From contig CAWFXA010000003.1 in NCBI GenBank assembly GCA_963819655.1, positions 768,001 through 832,000 of the forward strand: a DNA stretch of 64,000 nt, in the 5' to 3' direction. The translations under genes were made by a program, and so were the position numbers. Below the pieces are notes generated by a model. The model did not search any database, was not told the origin of the DNA, and was given only the letters and a program-made list of their open reading frames with translations. Numbering within the stretch: the stretch's first letter is position 1; every line of letters begins with the position of its first letter. Shown in pieces: positions 21,710 to 62,500 of the stretch. This DNA is from an uncultured Chloroflexia bacterium. Lineage in GTDB: Bacteria > Chloroflexota > Limnocylindria > Limnocylindrales > CSP1-4.

Positions 21710-21827
21710 GCATCTGTCAGATGCACCCTGCAGACAGCCTCGCGCGGACCTCAGACCAGATGACATCCCCGCGCATCTTGGGCCCCTCGCCACGTGAGCC
21801 TGTCGCGGATTCGCATCTGACGCTTGC
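21710..21827. repeat. 118-bp dispersed hairpin element, copy A
   Basis: Starts with palindrome GCATCTGTCAGATGC and ends GCATCTGACGCTTGC. Gapless 90/118 identity (hand count) to 31488-31605. Confidence 0.85.
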
Positions 21828-31487: not shown

Positions 31488-31605
31488 GCATCTGTGAGAT
31501 GCACGTTGACGACGGCGCTGCGTGGACCTCGGCCCAGACGACATCCCCGAGCACACTGGGCATGCCGGCAAGGGAGCCTGTCTGAAATTCGCATCTGACG
31601 CTTGC
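31488..31605. repeat. 118-bp dispersed hairpin element, copy B
   Basis: GCATCTGTGAGATGC...GCCCAGACGACATCCCCGAGCACACTGGGC...GCATCTGACGCTTGC; colinear with copy A. Confidence 0.85.
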
Positions 31606-31692: not shown

Positions 31693-31778
31693 GCCGAAGT
31701 GGCGGAATGGCAGACGCTGCGGTCTCAAACACCGTTCCACGCAAGTGGGTGAGGGTTCGACTCCCTCCTTCGGCACCA
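31693..31778 (+). tRNA. tRNA-Leu (anticodon CAA)
   Basis: Acceptor GCCGAAG/CTTCGGC+ACCA, D-arm TGGCGGAATGGCAGACGC, anticodon arm GCGGT-CTCAAAC-ACCGT, long variable arm, GGTTCGACTCC. Confidence 0.96.
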
Positions 31779-53942: not shown

Positions 53943-54865
53943 CGTCGGAGGACCCCGCGGCGTCGGAGACGCTGCTGCTCGGCGCCCTGAGCCTCGATCG
54001 TTATCTGCCCGACGGCCCGGTGCTGCCCGGCGGCGGCGCGCTCAACGTCGCGTGGCACTGGCGGTCGTTGGGGCTGCCGTTCACGTTGATCACTCGCGTC
54101 GGCGACCGCGAGGCCGCGCTCTTCCTCGACATGCTCGAGCGGCACGGAGTCGACCACGTGCCAGGGTCGATCGTGGCGGCCGGCCCGTCGGCATCGATCG
54201 ACATCGAGTTCCTGCCTGATCGCCAGCCGTGGATGGACAACTACGTCCAAGGCGTCTGCGGCGACCTGCGGTTCACACCCGACGAGGATGGACTCCTCGC
54301 GGGAGCGCGGCGGCTCCACGCGATCCTCGTCGAGGGCGTCATCGCTGAGCTGGAGCGGCAGGGCGGCGCGGGTCGGCTGGCGCACCTCGAGGTCGTGGCG
54401 GACTTCCTCGGGTTCCGGCATTACACCGTCGATCGGTTCGCGGACACGATGCGCTGGGTCGATCTCGCCATCGTCGGCTGGCCGGGCGACCCCGGCGACG
54501 CGACGGTGGCCGCGTTGCGGGACGTCGTCCGCGATCTCGGGAAGCGGCTCGTCGTGACGTTCGGTTCTCAAGGTGTGCTGGTCGTCGACGGGGCGGCGGG
54601 GTCCGAGCGGTCAGTGGCCGTGACGCCGTCACCCGTCGCGGGCACGACCATCGGGTGCGGCGACGCGTTCATCGCCTATCTCCTGGCGGACTGGTGGCGG
54701 AACGGCGACCTCATCGCGGCCGTGGAACAGGGCAAGGTCGGCGGGGCGCTGCCGACGGCGTGGGACAGGCCCCTGCCCGACGCCGCGTATGGCGGTCTTG
54801 AGCTGGAGGCACCCACCGGTCCGGACGTTCGCGGCGGTCGGGCAGCACGCGGCGGCTCTCGCTGA
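53939..54865 (+). CDS. PfkB-family carbohydrate kinase
   Basis: GGGALNVA, VVTFGSQG and TIGCGDAF motifs. Confidence 0.88.
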   Translation: MTSEDPAASETLLLGALSLDRYLPDGPVLPGGGALNVAWHWRSLGLPFTLITRVGDREAALFLDMLERHGVDHVPGSIVAAGPSASIDIEFLPDRQPWMDNYVQGVCGDLRFTPDEDGLLAGARRLHAILVEGVIAELERQGGAGRLAHLEVVADFLGFRHYTVDRFADTMRWVDLAIVGWPGDPGDATVAALRDVVRDLGKRLVVTFGSQGVLVVDGAAGSERSVAVTPSPVAGTTIGCGDAFIAYLLADWWRNGDLIAAVEQGKVGGALPTAWDRPLPDAAYGGLELEAPTGPDVRGGRAARGGSR

Positions 54866-55245
54866 CCATCGGTCAACGAATCCCGCCGATTGGGAAGGCA
54901 GCGCCCTAGGTCTGTCAACCCGCTGACCGTCGGTCACCGCGTGGACGGATCAGATCCGCGAAGTCGCGAGATGCTGTCCGTCGGTCAGCGCCACGGTGCT
55001 CCGGGGTGGTCCGCCGCGAGAAACGTTGACCGTCGGTCAGCGCCACGGTGCTCCGGGGTGGTCCGCCGCGAGAAACGTTGACCGTCGGTCAGCGCCACGG
55101 TGCTCCGGGGTGGTCCGCCGCGAGAAACGTTGACCGTCGGTCAGCGCCACGGTGCTCCGGGGTGGTCCGCCGCGAGAAACGTTGACCGTCGGTCAGCGCC
55201 ACGGTGCTCCGGGGTGGTCCGCCGCGAGAAACGTTGACGGTCGGC
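54861..55245. repeat. Array of REP-like palindromes including five near-identical 52-bp tandem units
   Basis: Unit ACCGTCGGTCAGCGCCACGGTGCTCCGGGGTGGTCCGCCGCGAGAAACGTTG at 54977 (one mismatch), 55029, 55081, 55133 and 55185. Degenerate palindrome copies at ~54861 and ~54922. Confidence 0.92.
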
Positions 55246-55247
55246 AA

Positions 55248-55526
55248 TCAGCGGAGCCAGAAGCCGATGAAGATCAGCACGAACCCGACGATCGCGATGA
55301 TGCCGGCGATCTGGGTCTGACGGCGGAGTTCGGACATCGCGACGGATGCCCCGGTCGGGCCGGTGTCCTCGGTGCGGAGTCCGCCGCGCCAAGCCTCGTA
55401 CCGATCGACATTGGCTTGCTGCTCCCGCAGCGCCCGATAGCGCGACCACGGGCCCCTGGCCCGCGTGTAGCCGATCGCCACGAGCGCCACCCCGAGCGCC
55501 CAGAAGATGATGTTCGTGAGGGTCAT
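55248..55526 (-). CDS. Small membrane protein
   Basis: Two TM helices; start overlaps the gatB stop. Confidence 0.75.
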   Translation of the reverse strand: MTLTNIIFWALGVALVAIGYTRARGPWSRYRALREQQANVDRYEAWRGGLRTEDTGPTGASVAMSELRRQTQIAGIIAIVGFVLIFIGFWLR

Positions 55527-57016
55527 CCCTCCAGCCTCTCGCGGATCAGCGCCTGGACCACGGCGGCATCGGCCTGGCCGCGGGTCGCCTTCATGACCTG
55601 GCCGACCAGGAAGCCGACGGCCTGGGTCTTGCCCGCGCGGTAGTCGGCGACCGCGCCCTCGTTCGCCGCGAGCACCTCGTCGACCGCGGCGCCGACGACG
55701 TCCGTATCCGAGATCTGCCGATAGCCGCGTTTGGCGACGATGTCCGCGATCGTGGCTCCCGTCGCGGCGTGCGCCGCGAGCGCGTCCTTGGCGTTCGAGC
55801 GAGAGATCGCCCCGTCGTCGACGAGGCTGACGAGAGCGGCCAACTCGTTGGGCACGACATTGACGGGCGCCTCCGCCGAGGCCGCGTTGCGGAGCCGCAG
55901 GTACTCGCCGGTCACCCAGTTCGCGACGGACTTGGCGGCGATCGAGGGATCGGCCGCGAGACCGGCCTCGAACAGCGTCGCCGCGTCACGGTCGGCGACG
56001 AGCACGGCCGCGTCGTAGGCGCTCAGTCCGAACGTCGTCGTGAACCGGTGCCGTCGGGCCGCGGGAAGCTCGGGCAGGGCCGCTGCGATCTGCGCGAGCC
56101 ATGCCGGTTCGACGTGGAGTGGCGGCAGGTCGGGCTCGGGGAAGTAGCGGTAGTCGTCCGACGTCTCCTTCGATCGCATGTGGTAGGTCGCCCCGCGATC
56201 GTCCGACCAGCCACGCGTCTCCTGGGTGAGCGGCTCGCCGGCGTCGAGGGCCGCTGCCTGTCGCTCGATCTCGAAGGCGATGGCCCTCTCGACGGAACGG
56301 AACGAGTTCATGTTCTTGACCTCGGCCCGCGTCCCGAACTCGACTGCCCCACGCGGCCGCAGCGACACATTCGCCTCGACCCGCATCTGACCGCGCTCCA
56401 TGTCGGCGTCGGATGCGCCGATGGTCCGCAGCAGCAGCTGCAGCTCCTCGGCGTAGCGACGGCCTTGCTCGGCCGTTCGGAGGTCAGGATCTGTGACGAT
56501 CTCCATCAACGGTGCGCCCGAGCGGTTGAAGTCGACCAGGCTGACCTTCCGTCCGTCGGCGGTCGTCGCGTGCACGAGCTTGGCCGTGTCTTCCTCGAGG
56601 TGGGCGCGCGTGATCCCGATCGTGAACGGCCCGTCCGACGTCTCGATCGTCAGCCGCCCCGCCGAGGCGAGCGGGAGGTCGTACTGACTGATCTGGTAAC
56701 CCTTGGGCAGGTCCGGGTAGAAGTAGTTCTTGCGATCCCACCTGGTCGCCTCGGGCGTGGTCGCCTCGATCGCGATGCCGGTCGCGAGGACGAGCTCGAC
56801 GGCACGTCGATTGATGACCGGGAGGGCGCCGGGCAGGCCCAGGCAGACGGGGCACACGTGCGTGTTCGGGGGGGCACCGTCGTATGCCGTCGCGCACGAG
56901 CAGAACATCTTCGACTCGGTGCGCAGCTGGCAGTGCACCTCGATGCCGATGACCGCCTCGTAGCGGTCGAGGGCCGGGGTACCGATCGTGTCGCCGTGGG
57001 TGGTCTCGATGGCCAT
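55523..57016 (-). CDS. gatB: Asp/Glu-tRNA amidotransferase subunit B
   Basis: IGIEVH, CPVCLGLPGALP, RKNYFYPDLPKGYQISQ and DYRYFPEPDLPP motifs. Confidence 0.98.
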   Translation of the reverse strand: MAIETTHGDTIGTPALDRYEAVIGIEVHCQLRTESKMFCSCATAYDGAPPNTHVCPVCLGLPGALPVINRRAVELVLATGIAIEATTPEATRWDRKNYFYPDLPKGYQISQYDLPLASAGRLTIETSDGPFTIGITRAHLEEDTAKLVHATTADGRKVSLVDFNRSGAPLMEIVTDPDLRTAEQGRRYAEELQLLLRTIGASDADMERGQMRVEANVSLRPRGAVEFGTRAEVKNMNSFRSVERAIAFEIERQAAALDAGEPLTQETRGWSDDRGATYHMRSKETSDDYRYFPEPDLPPLHVEPAWLAQIAAALPELPAARRHRFTTTFGLSAYDAAVLVADRDAATLFEAGLAADPSIAAKSVANWVTGEYLRLRNAASAEAPVNVVPNELAALVSLVDDGAISRSNAKDALAAHAATGATIADIVAKRGYRQISDTDVVGAAVDEVLAANEGAVADYRAGKTQAVGFLVGQVMKATRGQADAAVVQALIRERLEG

Positions 57017-57068
57017 TCGGAAGAGTCTCGCATACCGGGTCGGAGCGGCCCGTCCGGGGGCGCACCGA

Positions 57069-57495
57069 CGGCGGGTGCTCATTCATCGCCAGAGCGTCAC
57101 TGTGAGCGACATTGTCACTGTGAGTGACACGATCGGCACAGCCGTGCACGATCGATCGCCCAGACGACGTCCAACTGCATCCTGGGCGATCGGCGCGTGC
57201 TCGTTCATCGCCGGAGCGTCACTGGGAGTGACGTTGTCACTGTGAGTGACACGATCGGCACAGCCGTGCACGATCGATCGCCCAGACGACGTCCAGCTGC
57301 ATCCTGGGCGATCGGCGCGTGCTCGTTCATCGCCGGAGCGTCACTGGGAGTGACGTTGTCACTGTGAGCGACACGATCGGCACAGCCGTGCACGATCGAT
57401 CGCCCAGACGACGGTCGACTGCATCCTGGGCGATCGGCGGGTGCTCATTCATCGCCAGAGCGTCGCTGAGGGCGACATTGTCCCTGTGAGTGACG
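57069..57495. repeat. 122-bp tandem repeat (~3.5 copies), related to the 118-bp dispersed element
   Basis: Units start at 57069, 57191, 57313 and 57435 (partial). Each has paired GTCACTG(T/G)GAG(T/C)GAC palindromes and a GCCCAGACGAC...CTGGGC core. Confidence 0.92.
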
Positions 57496-57545
57496 CGACG
57501 AGCAGCGTCGCGACGACCCGCGAGGGCCGGCGCCACGACCGGGGG

Positions 57546-57773
57546 CTAGCGCCCGAACACGACCCCGGCCGCGGCGAGGAACAAGCCGTAGAGCGCGACA
57601 GCCAGCCACGCCACGCGGACGACGTCGGGACGTTCCTGGAAGGGGACAGGCTGCGTGCCACCCCTGTCGTTGGCGACGACCCCGCGACCGACGCGGCTCA
57701 CCACGGCGCGACCGGAGCCGACGATGGTCAGGATGATCCCGGACATGAAAAGGACAGCGACAGCCGGCTCCAT
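57546..57773 (-). CDS. Small two-TM hypothetical protein
   Basis: MEPAVAVLFMSGIILTIVG...VALYGLFLAAAGVVFGR with an AAGGGGG RBS. Confidence 0.55.
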   Translation of the reverse strand: MEPAVAVLFMSGIILTIVGSGRAVVSRVGRGVVANDRGGTQPVPFQERPDVVRVAWLAVALYGLFLAAAGVVFGR

Positions 57774-57879
57774 GGAACCCCCTTGATGTGACGGATGTGG
57801 CGGCATGTGACGGTGCCGCGGATGAGGACAAGGACATCCTAGCGCGACCCCGAGCGGGATCCGCAGGGACCCGATGGGA

Positions 57880-59475
57880 CTACCTGTCGACCACCGCCAT
57901 GGCTCCCATCCGCTCGGCCGGCGTCGGGGTCGCGGGGTCATCGAGAGCCGCCAGGTCGGCAGGCTCGAGGCTCCGCCAGGCAGCCCCGGCGGTGATCGCC
58001 TCGTAGCCGCGAGCCAGCTCGAACAACCTGGGCTCCGACCACGGCGCGCCGATGAACTGCAACCCGACGGGCAGGCCTTCGGACAGACCGGCCGGGATCG
58101 AGATGCCCGGCAGCCCGGCCATATTCACTGGCAGCGTGCACGCGTCGGACAGGTACATCGCCACGGGATCCTCGAGTCTGGCTCCGAACCGGAAGGCGAC
58201 CGTCGGTGAGGTCGGCGCCACGAGCGCGTCGAAGCCCTGCGCCCACAGGGCATCGAAGTCGCCCTTGATCAGCGTGCGCACCTTCTGGGCCTTGAGGTAG
58301 TAGGCGTCGTAGTAGCCGGCCGACAGCGCATACGTCCCGAGCATGATCCGGCGCTTCACCTCCGGCCCGAAGCCACCGCCTCGCGTCGCCAGATAGTCAG
58401 CGAGCACGTCGCGGCCCTCGCCCAGCCGCCGCCCGTAGCGGATGCCGTCGTAGCGCGCGAGGTTCGCCGACGCTTCGGCCGGTGCCACGATGTAGTAGGT
58501 CGCGAGCCCGTACTCCGTGTGCGGCAGCGACACGTCCTCGATGATCGCGCCGGCCGCCTCGAGCGCCGCCACCGCTTCGCGGACGCGCGCCTCGACCCCG
58601 GGCTCCATGCCCGCCACGAAATACTCGCGCGGCAGACCGAGCCGCTTGCCGCGCAGGGTCGAGGCAGCCTCGTCGTCGCTCGGCCGGCAGCGCCAGCAGG
58701 GCATCCGGGACGGGCTCCGGCGATGAGGTCGAGTCGCGCTCGTCGCGGCCCGCGACCGCGTGCAACAGCGCCGCCGCGTCCCGGGCGTCGCGGGCGAACG
58801 GCCCGATCTGATCGAGGGAGCTCGCGAACGCGACGATGCCGTAGCGGCTCACGCGGCCGTAGGTCGGCTTCATCCCGACGATCCCGGTCAGCGCGGCCGG
58901 CTGCCGGATCGAGCCGCCCGTGTCGGTGCCGATCGAGAGCGGGGGCATGGAAGGCGGCAACGGCGGACGCCGAGCCACCGCTCGAGCCGCCGGGGACACG
59001 GTCGAGCGCCCACGGATTGGCGGTCGGCCCGAACGCCGAGTGCTCCGTCGACGAACCCATCGCGAATTCGTCCATGTTCGTCTTCCCGAGGATCACCGCG
59101 CCGACGGCGCGCAGCCGCTCGGTGATATGGGCGTCGTAGGGGGACCGGTACCCCTCGAGGATCCGTGAACCTGCAGTGCACTGGCCGCCCTCGACCGAGA
59201 CGAGGTCCTTCAATGCCACCGGGATGCCGAGCAACGGGTGGAGCGCGCCCAACGTGGCGCTCCCCTCGCCGCGTGCCACTGCGATGCGGCGGTCGGCCGC
59301 ATCGGCCGCCGCGAGCGCCCGGTCGCGATCCAGCGACAGCCAGGCGTGCAGGCCGCCGGTCCTGGCGCTCGGCCAGGTCCAGGTGGGCGGCCGCGAGGTC
59401 GCGCGCGGAGAAGTCGCCCGACCGCAGGCCGGCCGCCATCTGGTGGGCGCGGAGTCGCGTGAGCTCTGCCGTCAT
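57880..59475 (-). CDS. gatA: Asp/Glu-tRNA amidotransferase subunit A (three apparent frameshifts)
   Basis: [42 protein letters not shown] and [11 protein letters not shown] are spread over successive frames, with shifts near 59357, 58943 and 58681. Confidence 0.92.
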
Positions 59476-59785: not shown

Positions 59786-59919
59786 GGACCCGATGATAGC
59801 CGAGCGACTTGGACCGACCGTTCCCCAGGCGGGCAAGTGTCGCCGTGCCGACAGCCAGCTGGCGCACCAAGCGAGATCGAGGGACGTCTCCCAGTCAAAC
59901 ACTCTCCCGGAGGCGACCT

Positions 59920-61158
59920 GTGCGCATCTCATCCTCGGCGCTCGCTACGACCATCACGACCAGCCTTGTCGTGGGCCTCCTCCTGGTGGCGTGCACGTCG
60001 TCCCCATCCGCGTCGCGAGCGCCGTCCACGGCAGCGACACCGGCACCGACCGGAGCGACGAGTCCGTCCGCCCCAGCGGAGTCGAGCACACCAACCGACG
60101 TCAGTCGGCCACCGACCTGGACCCCGACCCGAGCCATGAACACGTCTCGCGGTTTCCACACCGCGACGCTCCTGTCCGACGGAACGGTTCTTGTCGCCGG
60201 CGGTTCCACCGGCAGCGAGCTGGTGACGCTCGCCGAACTCTACGACCCCGACATCCGGACGTGGACGGCGACCGGACCGATGGTCCACGCACGCTACGGT
60301 CATACCGCGACCCTCCTCCAGGACGGCACGGTGCTCGTAGCTGGTGGCATCGGCGCTGGCGATGTCGATGCGTCGGAACGATCCGCGGAGCTCTACGACC
60401 CCAGGACCCGTGTCTGGACGGCGACCGGGCCGATGACGGTCAGCCGTACGCTCCATACGGCCACGCTCCTTCCAGATGGCACGGTGCTGGTGACTGGTGG
60501 CAGCGGCCGGACGACGAATGGCGCCGAGTTGGCGTCAACCGAACTGTTCGACCCGCGGACCGGTCGCTGGCAAGCCGCCAGCGATATGCTCGAAGCCCGG
60601 TACGGCCATACCGCCACACTCTTGGCGGGTGGCGTGGTGCTCGTGGCCGGCGGCGTTCCGCTCGGCGCAGAACACGTCGCCCCGGTCGGATCCAACCTCG
60701 CGACGGCCGAGCTGTACGACCCAACCAGCCGATCGTGGGCGACCACAGGGGCAATGAGTGACGGTCGTGCCAAGCACACTGCCACGCTCCTTGACGATGG
60801 CACAGTCCTTGTCACCCGGTTCGGGCCACTTGGGTCCACGCAGCGCTACGACCCGGAGACTGGATCCTGGACAGTCACGCAGGACCCGGACGTCGTCCGA
60901 TACGGGCCGACCGCGACGCTCCTGGCTGATGGACAGGTGCTGGTCGTCGGTGGCTACGGCGACGACGCCGGCAGCGGACGGGCAGCCGAGCTGTTCGATC
61001 CCGTCAGCGGGCGATGGATCGCGACCACCGACCTCGGCGTGGCCCGCGACGGGCACACGTCGACCCTGCTTACCGACGGCACCGCGCTCGTGGTCGGCGG
61101 CACGACCGGAAACGTGAAGGACTCCGCAGAGGTGTTCGATCCGGGCGAAGGCTTCTGA
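59920..61158 (+). CDS. Kelch-repeat lipoprotein
   Basis: Lipobox LVAC, S/T/P linker, repeated HTATLL.DG.VLV.GG...AELYDP units. Confidence 0.88.
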   Translation: MRISSSALATTITTSLVVGLLLVACTSSPSASRAPSTAATPAPTGATSPSAPAESSTPTDVSRPPTWTPTRAMNTSRGFHTATLLSDGTVLVAGGSTGSELVTLAELYDPDIRTWTATGPMVHARYGHTATLLQDGTVLVAGGIGAGDVDASERSAELYDPRTRVWTATGPMTVSRTLHTATLLPDGTVLVTGGSGRTTNGAELASTELFDPRTGRWQAASDMLEARYGHTATLLAGGVVLVAGGVPLGAEHVAPVGSNLATAELYDPTSRSWATTGAMSDGRAKHTATLLDDGTVLVTRFGPLGSTQRYDPETGSWTVTQDPDVVRYGPTATLLADGQVLVVGGYGDDAGSGRAAELFDPVSGRWIATTDLGVARDGHTSTLLTDGTALVVGGTTGNVKDSAEVFDPGEGF

Positions 61159-61207
61159 GATGGGGATCGTGGCCGCGGCCTTCCACACGTCATCCGGAGA
61201 GCATCCA

Positions 61208-62500
61208 ATGCGCGTTTCGTACTCGGCGATCGCGGCGTCGATCATGGCCTCGCTTCTCGTCGCGTGCACGTCGAGTCCGAACTCGAGCTCGAGCACGAAC
61301 CCGAGTCCGAGCCAGGTGGTCATCTCGACGTCGGCACCGCCCGGGCAGCTGGCGTCCCCAGCCACGTCGGCGGCGCGTTCCGCTCCTGCCGTGGAGTCCC
61401 CGGTCGCGACGCCGTCGGTGACTCCCATGCCGACCCCGGAGGTCCGGCGGGCACCGCGGTGGCTCCCTGCCGGGCATATGGCCCAGCCCCGCGGATTCGG
61501 CTCCATCGCCACGCTTTTACGCGACGGCACGGTGCTGCTAGCGGGAGGCGACCGCTCCCAGGCCCGCGACGAGATCTACGATCCGGGCGCCGGGACATGG
61601 ACGCCGACTCGAAGCATGGCCGATTGGCGCTTCGACTTCAGCGCGACACTGCTCAGGGACGGCAGGGTGCTCGTGGCAGGCGGCAGGACCGCCGCCGGCG
61701 TCGAAGAACGATTGGCCACTGCCGAGCTGTACGACCCGGTGACCGGTCGATGGACGGCCACAGGGAGCATGACCGGGGAACGCGGCGGCCACACGGCCAC
61801 GCTCCTTCCGGATGGCAGGGTGCTGGTGACCGGCGGTCATGTCTATACGAGCGACCCCGGCGGCAGACGCCCCCTGACCTCGTCCGAGCTGTACGATCCG
61901 GCGACCGGACGGTGGACCGCCACCGGGAGTCTCGTCACGGCCCGCGGCGGGCACGTCGGGACGCTATTGCCGAGCGGCAAGGTCCTCGTCGCGGGTGGCG
62001 CGTCCCTCGCTGCGAGCACGCTGGCTTCCGCCGAGCTATACGACCCAGCGAACGGGCGGTGGACGGCGACAGGAATCATGATCCATGAACGCTATGGACC
62101 GGCCATCGTTGGGTTGCCCGACGGCACCGTCCTCGTGATCGGCGGTCAGGATAGCGACACCACCGCCAAGACGGCCGAGCGGTACGACCCGGATAGCGGC
62201 CGATGGACGGCGACCGGGAGCCTGGACGAGGGTCGGCACAGCTTCTCGGCGTCCCTCATGGCTGACGGTCGAGTCCTGGTAGCGGGCGGTCGTAGCGCCG
62301 ACCGGTTCGGGATCGCGTTGGCCTCGGCCGAGCTCTACGATCCGCAGCGTGGTCGGTGGACCCCCACGGCGGGCATGGATGCCGGCCGGATCTATGCTGC
62401 GGCCACGGTGCTCGACGATGGCACGGTCCTCGTCGCCGGTGGGGCCGGCGATGGGTGGTTGACCTCAGCCGAGCGCTACGACCAGAACGGAGGGGCGTAG
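61208..62500 (+). CDS. Kelch-repeat lipoprotein (tandem paralogue)
   Basis: Lipobox LVAC and the same kelch repeat architecture. Confidence 0.88.
   Translation: MRVSYSAIAASIMASLLVACTSSPNSSSSTNPSPSQVVISTSAPPGQLASPATSAARSAPAVESPVATPSVTPMPTPEVRRAPRWLPAGHMAQPRGFGSIATLLRDGTVLLAGGDRSQARDEIYDPGAGTWTPTRSMADWRFDFSATLLRDGRVLVAGGRTAAGVEERLATAELYDPVTGRWTATGSMTGERGGHTATLLPDGRVLVTGGHVYTSDPGGRRPLTSSELYDPATGRWTATGSLVTARGGHVGTLLPSGKVLVAGGASLAASTLASAELYDPANGRWTATGIMIHERYGPAIVGLPDGTVLVIGGQDSDTTAKTAERYDPDSGRWTATGSLDEGRHSFSASLMADGRVLVAGGRSADRFGIALASAELYDPQRGRWTPTAGMDAGRIYAAATVLDDGTVLVAGGAGDGWLTSAERYDQNGGA

Follow-up and report, generated by a model that had tools for sequence, protein, structure and literature searches.

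Tandem 119-nt hairpin repeats upstream of gatB in a Chloroflexota genome: a probable REPIN/MITE-like non-autonomous element family

The stretch of Chloroflexota DNA analyzed here (64,000 nt, hereafter the window) carries a tandem array just upstream of gatB that would represent the head-to-tail amplification of a 119-nt rod-like hairpin repeat. We consider it probable, at about 0.6, that the array element is a REPIN/MITE-like non-autonomous hairpin element which became tandem by slippage between its doubled palindromic ends. Instead of a gene or a regulator, the repeat is most likely an uncatalogued kind of small, parasitic mobile element, and its family would consist of non-autonomous selfish elements that reside between the genes of a single family of Limnocylindrales-like Chloroflexota. 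Repeat families of this type have been studied in depth in Proteobacteria and in a few further groups. In the literature searched we found no description of such repeats for Limnocylindria, and for intergenic palindromes or hairpins in Chloroflexi it gave only GTAG repeats, mentioned in passing.

The anatomy of the array is well defined. TRF reports positions 57069-57498 as a tandem array of period 122 with 3.5 copies, 92% matches and 0% indels (score 713), and an independent repeat search agrees in register, returning three 186-nt copies from 57069, 57191 and 57313, the latter two being 96% and 89% identical to the first. The period is the sum of a 119-nt element and a 3-nt joint. A preliminary description of this DNA had divided each unit into 15 + 29 + 30 + 30 + 15 nt plus a 3-nt joint, and this layout matches the sequence of 57114-57232. 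The left-hand 15-mers were likewise as given there, namely GTCACTGTGAGTGAC in the array unit and GCATCTGTGAGATGC in a diverged copy elsewhere in the window (copy B), each followed by ACG, and a recount by eye of the 30-nt core again gave 23 of 30 matches between unit and copy B.

Taking the orientation of an element from the strand that bears ATGAAYGAGCRYG in the 5' arm, all three complete 119-nt units lie on the minus strand: unit 1 at 57114-57232 (131.4 bits with the covariance model, CM), unit 2 at 57236-57354 (130.8 bits) and unit 3 at 57358-57476 (124.3 bits), the most diverged of the three at about 90% identity to unit 1. Facing gatB, the array begins with a truncated unit (57069-57095, minus strand) of which only the arm with the conserved box remains (a partial nhmmer match to profile positions 74-111), followed by an outer 15-nt palindrome, GTCACTGTGAGCGAC (57096-57110), that is joined to unit 1 by ATT. 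The opposite end, towards a small ORF, is an outer 15-nt near-palindrome, GTCCCTGTGAGTGAC (57480-57494). The arm box, exemplified by ATGAACGAGCACG on the minus strand at 57196-57208, is the best-conserved internal sequence of the element family according to both motif search and alignments. The bare heptamer CTGTGAG shows no enrichment in the window (6 found against 6.9 expected). A unit folds as one long hairpin of -63.2 kcal/mol (z = -4.3), and none of 200 shuffles was equally stable.

It also should be considered that the array, or its copy number, could be an artefact of a mis-assembled dispersed repeat. Public short contigs (Logan, from related soil organisms, with a word share of at most 0.22) yielded no piece spanning the array, and the adjoining gatA carries two frameshifts, so that per-base quality is imperfect. 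However, the units differ from one another to the extent given above, the flanks are unique, the period-122 architecture recurs at four further sites of a genome assembled into only three contigs, and in run X6, which comes from another study, one contig connects unit sequence with the flank on the small-ORF side. We regard an artefact as extremely unlikely. Two other read-outs were discarded as evidence: a joint 57043>57416 in X2, the shorter side of which is only 25 nt, and a skip of 125 with CGG between in X6, which equals one period and is explained most simply by alignment to the adjacent unit.

Two diverged 118-nt members lie elsewhere in the window, both on the minus strand: copy A (21710-21827), with the ends GCAAGCGTCAGATGC and GCATCTGACAGATGC, and copy B (31488-31605), which has a weak fold and sits 88 nt upstream of the tRNA gene at 31693-31775. 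The palindromic layout once ascribed to them fails at the right end, where the 15-mers (GCATCTGACGCTTGC) are no palindromes; their end type is non-palindromic, with GCAAGC-nnn-AGATGC on the left and GCATCT-nnn-GCTTGC on the right. That these copies and the array units form one family is supported by profiles, whereas the direct pairwise similarity is borderline. In global alignments unit 1 reaches z = 2.7 against A and z = 2.3 against B, with 53 and 93 of 2000 dinucleotide shuffles, respectively, doing as well. A profile of the 33 other members gives A 19.5 bits (the jackknife value) and B 14.0 bits, and neither score is reached by any of 1000 dinucleotide shuffles, the best of which attain 8.6 bits for A and 5.1 bits for B. 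Copy A scores 77.4 bits with the CM, of which it is a part, and copy B was recruited by iterative nhmmer at E = 3e-4 with a profile that at the time did not include it. The link between the array and A and B runs through intermediate family members and needs profiles to be seen. A and B are 75% alike, and in blastn searches against the genome at E <= 1e-3 each finds only the other. Copy A has a stable fold (z = -4.05 and -3.58). The fold of copy B does not surpass that of shuffles (z = 0.36 and -0.17), and this copy hence looks decayed.

Beyond the window, which is C3:768001-832000, the genome (3.49 Mb in three contigs, C1 to C3, 69% G+C, 91% complete) holds many further copies. Blastn places sequences 96-98% identical to the units at C3:393829, C3:840141 and C3:974345, and others 79-88% identical at C2:45420, C1:444414 and C3:45825. 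Iterating nhmmer to convergence brought the family to 38 loci, 35 full and 3 partial copies, at 25 sites; being quasi-palindromic, the element matches on both strands at every locus. After orientation by the arm box and trimming to the terminal 15-mers, every one of the 35 full copies measures 118-120 nt. Common to the element are two 15-nt inverted-repeat ends (G-N13-C), the arm box, a GC-rich apical stem (CCCAG...CTGGG in the commonest subfamily) and the near-fixed length. Subfamilies differ in end sequence, while both ends of one copy match each other; the ends are self-palindromic in the GTCAC, GTCGC, GTTCC, GTTAC, GGAAC and GCGCC subfamilies and not in others, and chimeric ends exist. Arrays of period 122 are found at five sites, all belonging to the doubled-palindrome subfamily and with degenerate or truncated edges; non-palindromic or single-end subfamilies are solitary. 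The idea that N4-CT-N3-AG-N4' palindromes form a special class was rejected, there being 114 in the genome, 78 of them outside the family, with CT only ninth of 16 central dinucleotides.

Genes around the 25 sites were called with a crude ORF and GC3 filter, which makes the site tallies approximate. On this basis 23 sites are free of any overlapping gene and thus intergenic, and the neighbouring genes are co-directional at 15 sites, convergent at 8 and divergent at 2. Where they are co-directional, the box strand is the gene strand in 8 cases and the opposite strand in 7, which fits insertion in either direction. Ordinary Pfam domains were present in 40 of the 47 flanking ORFs scanned, with unrelated housekeeping functions (argininosuccinate synthase, SecA, PRPP synthetase, citrate synthase, CorA, GroEL, BipA and sensor kinases, for example), and these 47 ORFs revealed neither a transposase nor a shared functional theme. 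GC skew is very weak in this genome and bears no relation to element orientation.

Three individual loci deserve mention. At C2:1272810-1272929 the ORF of an IclR-type regulator has a 3' extension that contains a family member; IclR_C ends at residue 271 of 384, so that the insertion may have replaced the original stop and lengthened the protein. At C2:226033-226213 an element of the GCAAC/GCATC type abuts the right half of a GTCGC-type element, with core scraps on both sides, which from the sequence looks like one element inserted into or beside another. The GTTAC-type elements at C2:189070-189353 and 191869-191987, 2.6 kb apart, also share about 25 nt of flank on each side; they stem from a segmental duplication, not from two insertions.

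In the RNAalifold structure of the 35 copies the left end is paired with the right, and 12 of 20 pairs show compensatory changes. The terminal palindromes had been proposed to co-vary; the ends do co-vary at fixed spacing, but pairing of left with right is stronger than pairing within each local palindrome. End to end, 90.5% of cells are paired in the 35 copies with a covariation of 0.496, and 88.6% with a covariation of 0.637 in a set of 74 sequences, values as high being found in none of 500 shuffles in either case. The corresponding figures for local 15-mer hairpins are 82.1% and 0.339 for the 35 copies and 78.2% and 0.441 for the 74 sequences. Both models outperform all 500 shuffles as well as slid controls (at most 44% paired; at most 43.8% for end-to-end pairing with slid partners in the 35 sequences). 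The larger set combines 24 of the 35 copies of this genome with 40 of the 43 elements fetched from other genomes and 10 of a further 19 elements, leaving out near-duplicates and two short outliers. The general rule of the ends is thus a terminal inverted repeat, and in the alignment each 15-mer is invariant only at its first G and its last C. Individual folds agree with this picture, the minimum-energy structure pairing both ends in 76 of 78 elements from this and other genomes (mean z = -3.5) and forming a single unbranched hairpin in 46 of 78. Such conservation of pairing could reflect selection on structure. Co-varying inverted ends are, however, also expected for the ends of transposons.

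These same palindromes invite a regulatory interpretation, in which the 15-bp sequences (6-3-6) would be operators of a dimeric DNA-binding protein and the array a docking platform controlling gatB. The 6-nt half-sites and their doubling at 18-nt spacing would suit such a protein. The half-sites within one genome are nonetheless so varied (GTCAC, GCATC, GTTCC, GGAAC, GTTAC and GTGTC) that no single protein could recognize all of them, the two ends complement each other better than they form local palindromes, divergently transcribed genes flank only 2 of the 25 sites, and the neighbouring genes lack a common function. We consider operator arrays very unlikely.

A function at the RNA level has more in its favour. 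Here the 119-nt rod would be transcribed and would work as a small structured RNA or a cis-acting hairpin family; it might serve as a processing or stabilising signal, as a bidirectional terminator-like insulator or as a free small RNA, with its multiplication in the genome being secondary. Functional RNAs, too, are marked by a conserved internal loop together with co-varying stems and a fixed length, and in the present family the length is fixed across genera and the stems co-vary around conserved unpaired or wobble-paired boxes. In addition, many copies lie 25-45 nt past a stop codon, 8 of 25 sites are convergent, and in 28 of 35 copies, many of them near-duplicates, the strand with the box has the better fold (by a mean of 3.1 kcal/mol). 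This difference is suggestive; the excess of G-T (116) over A-C (19) was dropped as a strand test since it is biased, the structure having been predicted on the oriented strand. Against an RNA, the searches returned no Rfam family: over the window at gathering thresholds the only match was the tRNA at 31693-31775, and over 56950-57600 at E <= 10 the best rows had 14-16.5 bits and E = 0.8-3.7, which is chance level. Neither a sigma-70-like promoter nor an intrinsic terminator consensus was found in 54800-58100, and the flanks differ between copies, so that no shared external promoter is visible. The nearly even split of orientations relative to neighbouring genes also speaks against it, as do the instability of sites between closest species and the spread of copy numbers among congeners that are described below. 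Taken together, we judge an RNA function to be rather unlikely.

The gatB locus itself was compared with that of relatives. On the minus strand the gene order is gatA, a small ORF, the array and gatB. The gatB gene (55523-57016, minus strand; Pfam GatB_N 8.6e-113, GatB_Yqey 8.5e-40) starts at an ATG at 57016, 52 nt from the array, and the nearest relatives of its product are in records of Candidatus Limnocylindrales or of uncultured Chloroflexia or Chloroflexota MAGs, at no more than 80% identity. The preliminary description had placed the array inside the gatCAB region just upstream of gatB, and it is indeed just upstream of gatB; a small conserved ORF separates it from gatA, which puts its position between the small ORF and gatB. 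This ORF (57546-57771, or to 57941, minus strand; the probable start is the ATG at 57771) is without a Pfam family over 57546-57941, and its product, with a C-terminal half that is hydrophobic by eye, may be a small membrane protein. A homologue occupies the same position in one congener, G006 (56% identity over residues 43-131), and is absent from another, G043, in which gatA directly adjoins gatB; in most congeners gatA is farther than 1.5 kb from gatB. In the assembly gatA, the amidase gene (57880-59279, minus strand), is spread over three frames by two frameshifts, as seen from Pfam Amidase matches on two ORFs and from three-frame translation. The frame changes fall near residues 113 and 205, places at which the frame of relatives is intact, with the amidase core in the middle frame, and they represent either two sequencing errors or a broken gene.

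Comparison with relatives shows the array to be lineage-specific, the element being present at none of the 34 other gatB loci of the genus (29 + 5). The family profile, applied to 80 relatives in the species collection, likewise had no match in their gatB loci. G006 provides an empty site, having gatA, the small ORF and gatB in the same order with a spacer of about 50-60 nt in place of the 529 nt seen here. The present lineage alone would have seen the element land, or expand, in the interval from the small ORF to gatB. A long target duplication of the spacer flanking the array was considered and rejected (U vs D, p = 0.21; G006 vs D, p = 0.13; G006 vs U, p = 0.81).

Another reading is a MIRU-like intercistronic repeat acting as a translation relay, whereby ribosomes leaving the small ORF would be handed on towards gatB. 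Every unit does contain a 41-codon frame on the gatB strand, running from the ATG of the box to the TGA within the ATGA of the next unit, and such ATGA overlaps chain the units (126 - 4 = 122 nt). The ends of minus-strand ORFs, at 57327, 57205 and 57083, are spaced by exactly 122 nt, and the first frame starts 10 nt past the stop of the small ORF. In the original description of MIRUs the small ORFs reportedly overlap the flanking genes. Here the last frame stops 66 nt short of the gatB ATG and neither flanking gene is overlapped; moreover, from reading the sequences, the peptide is not conserved between subfamilies and only the nucleotide box is. The 8 to 7 split of orientations and the 8 convergent sites do not suit a relay either, and a single stop per 122 nt is unremarkable at 69% GC, where we estimate about 2.4 to be expected. 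We find a relay most improbable. MIRUs themselves are tandem repeats of ~40-100 bp dispersed in mycobacterial genomes, with one site within an operon (PMC3184786). The array resembles them in consisting of tandem repeats between genes of a high-GC genome with small frames through the units, but differs in that its units are longer (122 bp) and palindromic, its frames miss the flanking genes and its orientation is not tied to transcription.

The distribution of the family suits an element that would be mobile. With the covariance model it was detected in 16 of 24 other species of the genus; 16 small genomes of the sister family gave no match. Order-wide, matches were obtained in 21 of 151 genomes, this genome included, and in 4 of 28 genera (14/21, 2/10, 3/6 and 1/1 genomes), all within one family, the sister family giving 0 of 42. 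The copy number among congeners ranges from none found to dozens. Length is kept throughout, with 31 of the 43 elements fetched from other genomes being exactly 119 nt and 41 being 117-121 nt. Positions, by contrast, are not. The argG site and the groEL site are each without an element in all five congeners compared, among them G163, the proteins of which are 98-99% identical and yet whose argG and groEL sites are empty. At the citrate-synthase site one of five congeners has an element, of another end type. Even between the closest species, occupied sites are not conserved.

We also looked for machinery that could move the element. No target-site duplication was apparent among the 74 elements, of which 10 have flanks that agree over 2 nt and 6 have flanks that agree over 3 nt. 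The bases next to the ends are biased (position -1: T 41, C 21, G 12, A 0; position +1: A 34, G 30, C 7, T 3), and as position -1 complements +1, the stem runs on outward. A Y1/RAYT transposase (Y1_Tnp, PF01797) was found neither in this genome nor in any of 31 genomes of the genus at E <= 0.001; the searched genomes are 59-95% complete, and a control search with PF01797 was positive in 6 of 14 reference genomes. This genome also gave no match to DDE_Tnp_1 (PF01609), rve (PF00665), TnpB-type (PF07282) or IS110 (PF01548) domains. The lack of a duplication in the 74 elements and of a match to the five transposase families searched counts against a mobile element.

Among known systems, REPINs and their tandem clusters are the closest analogues. 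REPINs are described as hairpins in which the length and the pairing of the spacer are critical and compensatory changes common, and which form ordered tandem arrays (PMC3116915). Like REPINs and the BIMEs of enterobacteria, the repeats described here lie between genes in tens of copies per genome, have inverted ends closing into a long hairpin, a constrained length and compensatory changes across the hairpin, and form ordered tandem clusters of near-identical units; the hairpin by which REPINs are recognized is present, with ends that pair in nearly all elements (76/78), most cells paired (88.6%) and constrained lengths. Unlike REPINs, they have no RAYT/Y1 transposase in the 31 genus genomes and, as read from the alignment, no unpaired GTAG or CGTC tag at the ends, and they occur in a different phylum. 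The pattern of conservation is also reversed: here the conserved part is an internal box and the ends vary, whereas REPINs combine conserved REP ends with a variable spacer. With RAYT and tag absent and the anatomy REPIN-like, we have filed the family as a variant of the non-autonomous hairpin-repeat kind.

There is precedent for such an orphan state. Families of CGTC-tagged or untagged palindromic repeats persist without an identifiable cognate transposase, according to Di Nocera et al. 2013 (PMC3733652), and the present family is like the CGTC REPs in being palindromic with no transposase found, but is a 119-nt composite rod with 15-nt ends rather than a stem of 8-9 bp with a loop of 4-5 nt and a terminal CGTC. 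MITEs offer the other comparison. Target duplications and a flanking TA are known for Correia elements. ERIC-type sequences have both features as well, and Correia (~104-157 bp) and ERIC (~127 bp) have terminal inverted repeats, lie between genes, are co-transcribed and fold as a whole-element hairpin (PMC3184786). Our repeats agree with these MITEs in size, terminal inverted repeats, intergenic location, whole-element hairpin and, putatively, co-transcription with adjacent genes; they depart from them in lacking a target-site duplication, in having no parent IS or transposase found with the five Pfam families, and in the diversity of ends within one genome.

A more radical proposal is that we are dealing with a new class of self-propagating hairpin that needs neither RAYT nor any of the four other transposase families searched, or with a new functional RNA of Limnocylindrales. 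The 6-3-6 ends (G-N13-C), the 119-nt length, the wobble-paired box and the better-folding strand would then be read as single-stranded DNA or RNA, the reader being an enzyme of a kind not yet known. We hold this to be possible but unlikely.

Returning to the REPIN/MITE-like element that we favour, its tandem growth can be rationalized from the ends. In the GTCAC/GTCGC subfamily the palindromic 15-mer is doubled, giving 15 + 3 + 15 nt at each boundary, and this is also the case in single copies and in other species. Each 15-mer being its own reverse complement, the 33-nt modules around an 89-nt body are both direct and inverted repeats. Replication slippage or unequal recombination between the 33-nt modules would add or remove blocks of 89 + 33 nt, which accounts for the period of 122. 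Degenerate or truncated edges are what would be expected if arrays grow from within.

These genomes appear almost free of ordinary insertion sequences and have no RAYT, the element still keeps a strict length and co-varying ends, and it changes position between species with housekeeping proteins 98-99% identical. With few insertion sequences, no RAYT and so strict an element, the family is a useful test of how REP-like DNA can spread without a known transposase. For annotation, the covariance model flags stretches between genes that ought not to be annotated as genes, riboswitches or CRISPR-like arrays, and the period-122 arrays may be of use as strain markers. If the array is co-transcribed, it would place three hairpins of about -60 kcal/mol each in the gatB leader. 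Any consequence for gatB is likely to be modest, in the form of a structured leader or an operon break.

The window contains two further sets of repeats close to this locus. Beyond gatB, between the 3' ends of gatB and of a PfkB-family kinase gene, lies a second tandem array (54978-55244) with a 52-bp unit in 5.1 copies, 99% identical and confined to the locus. Every unit of it holds GTTGACCGTCGGTCAGCG, a TGACC-N3-GGTCA palindrome, and a stretch of 21-25 nt across this sequence also occurs at C3:223264-223285, C1:523459 and C2:1529793. On the other side, at 59809-62444, repeats of ~150 nt in 12-13 copies that are 60-80% alike fall within a Kelch-repeat (beta-propeller) gene and are ordinary coding repeats.
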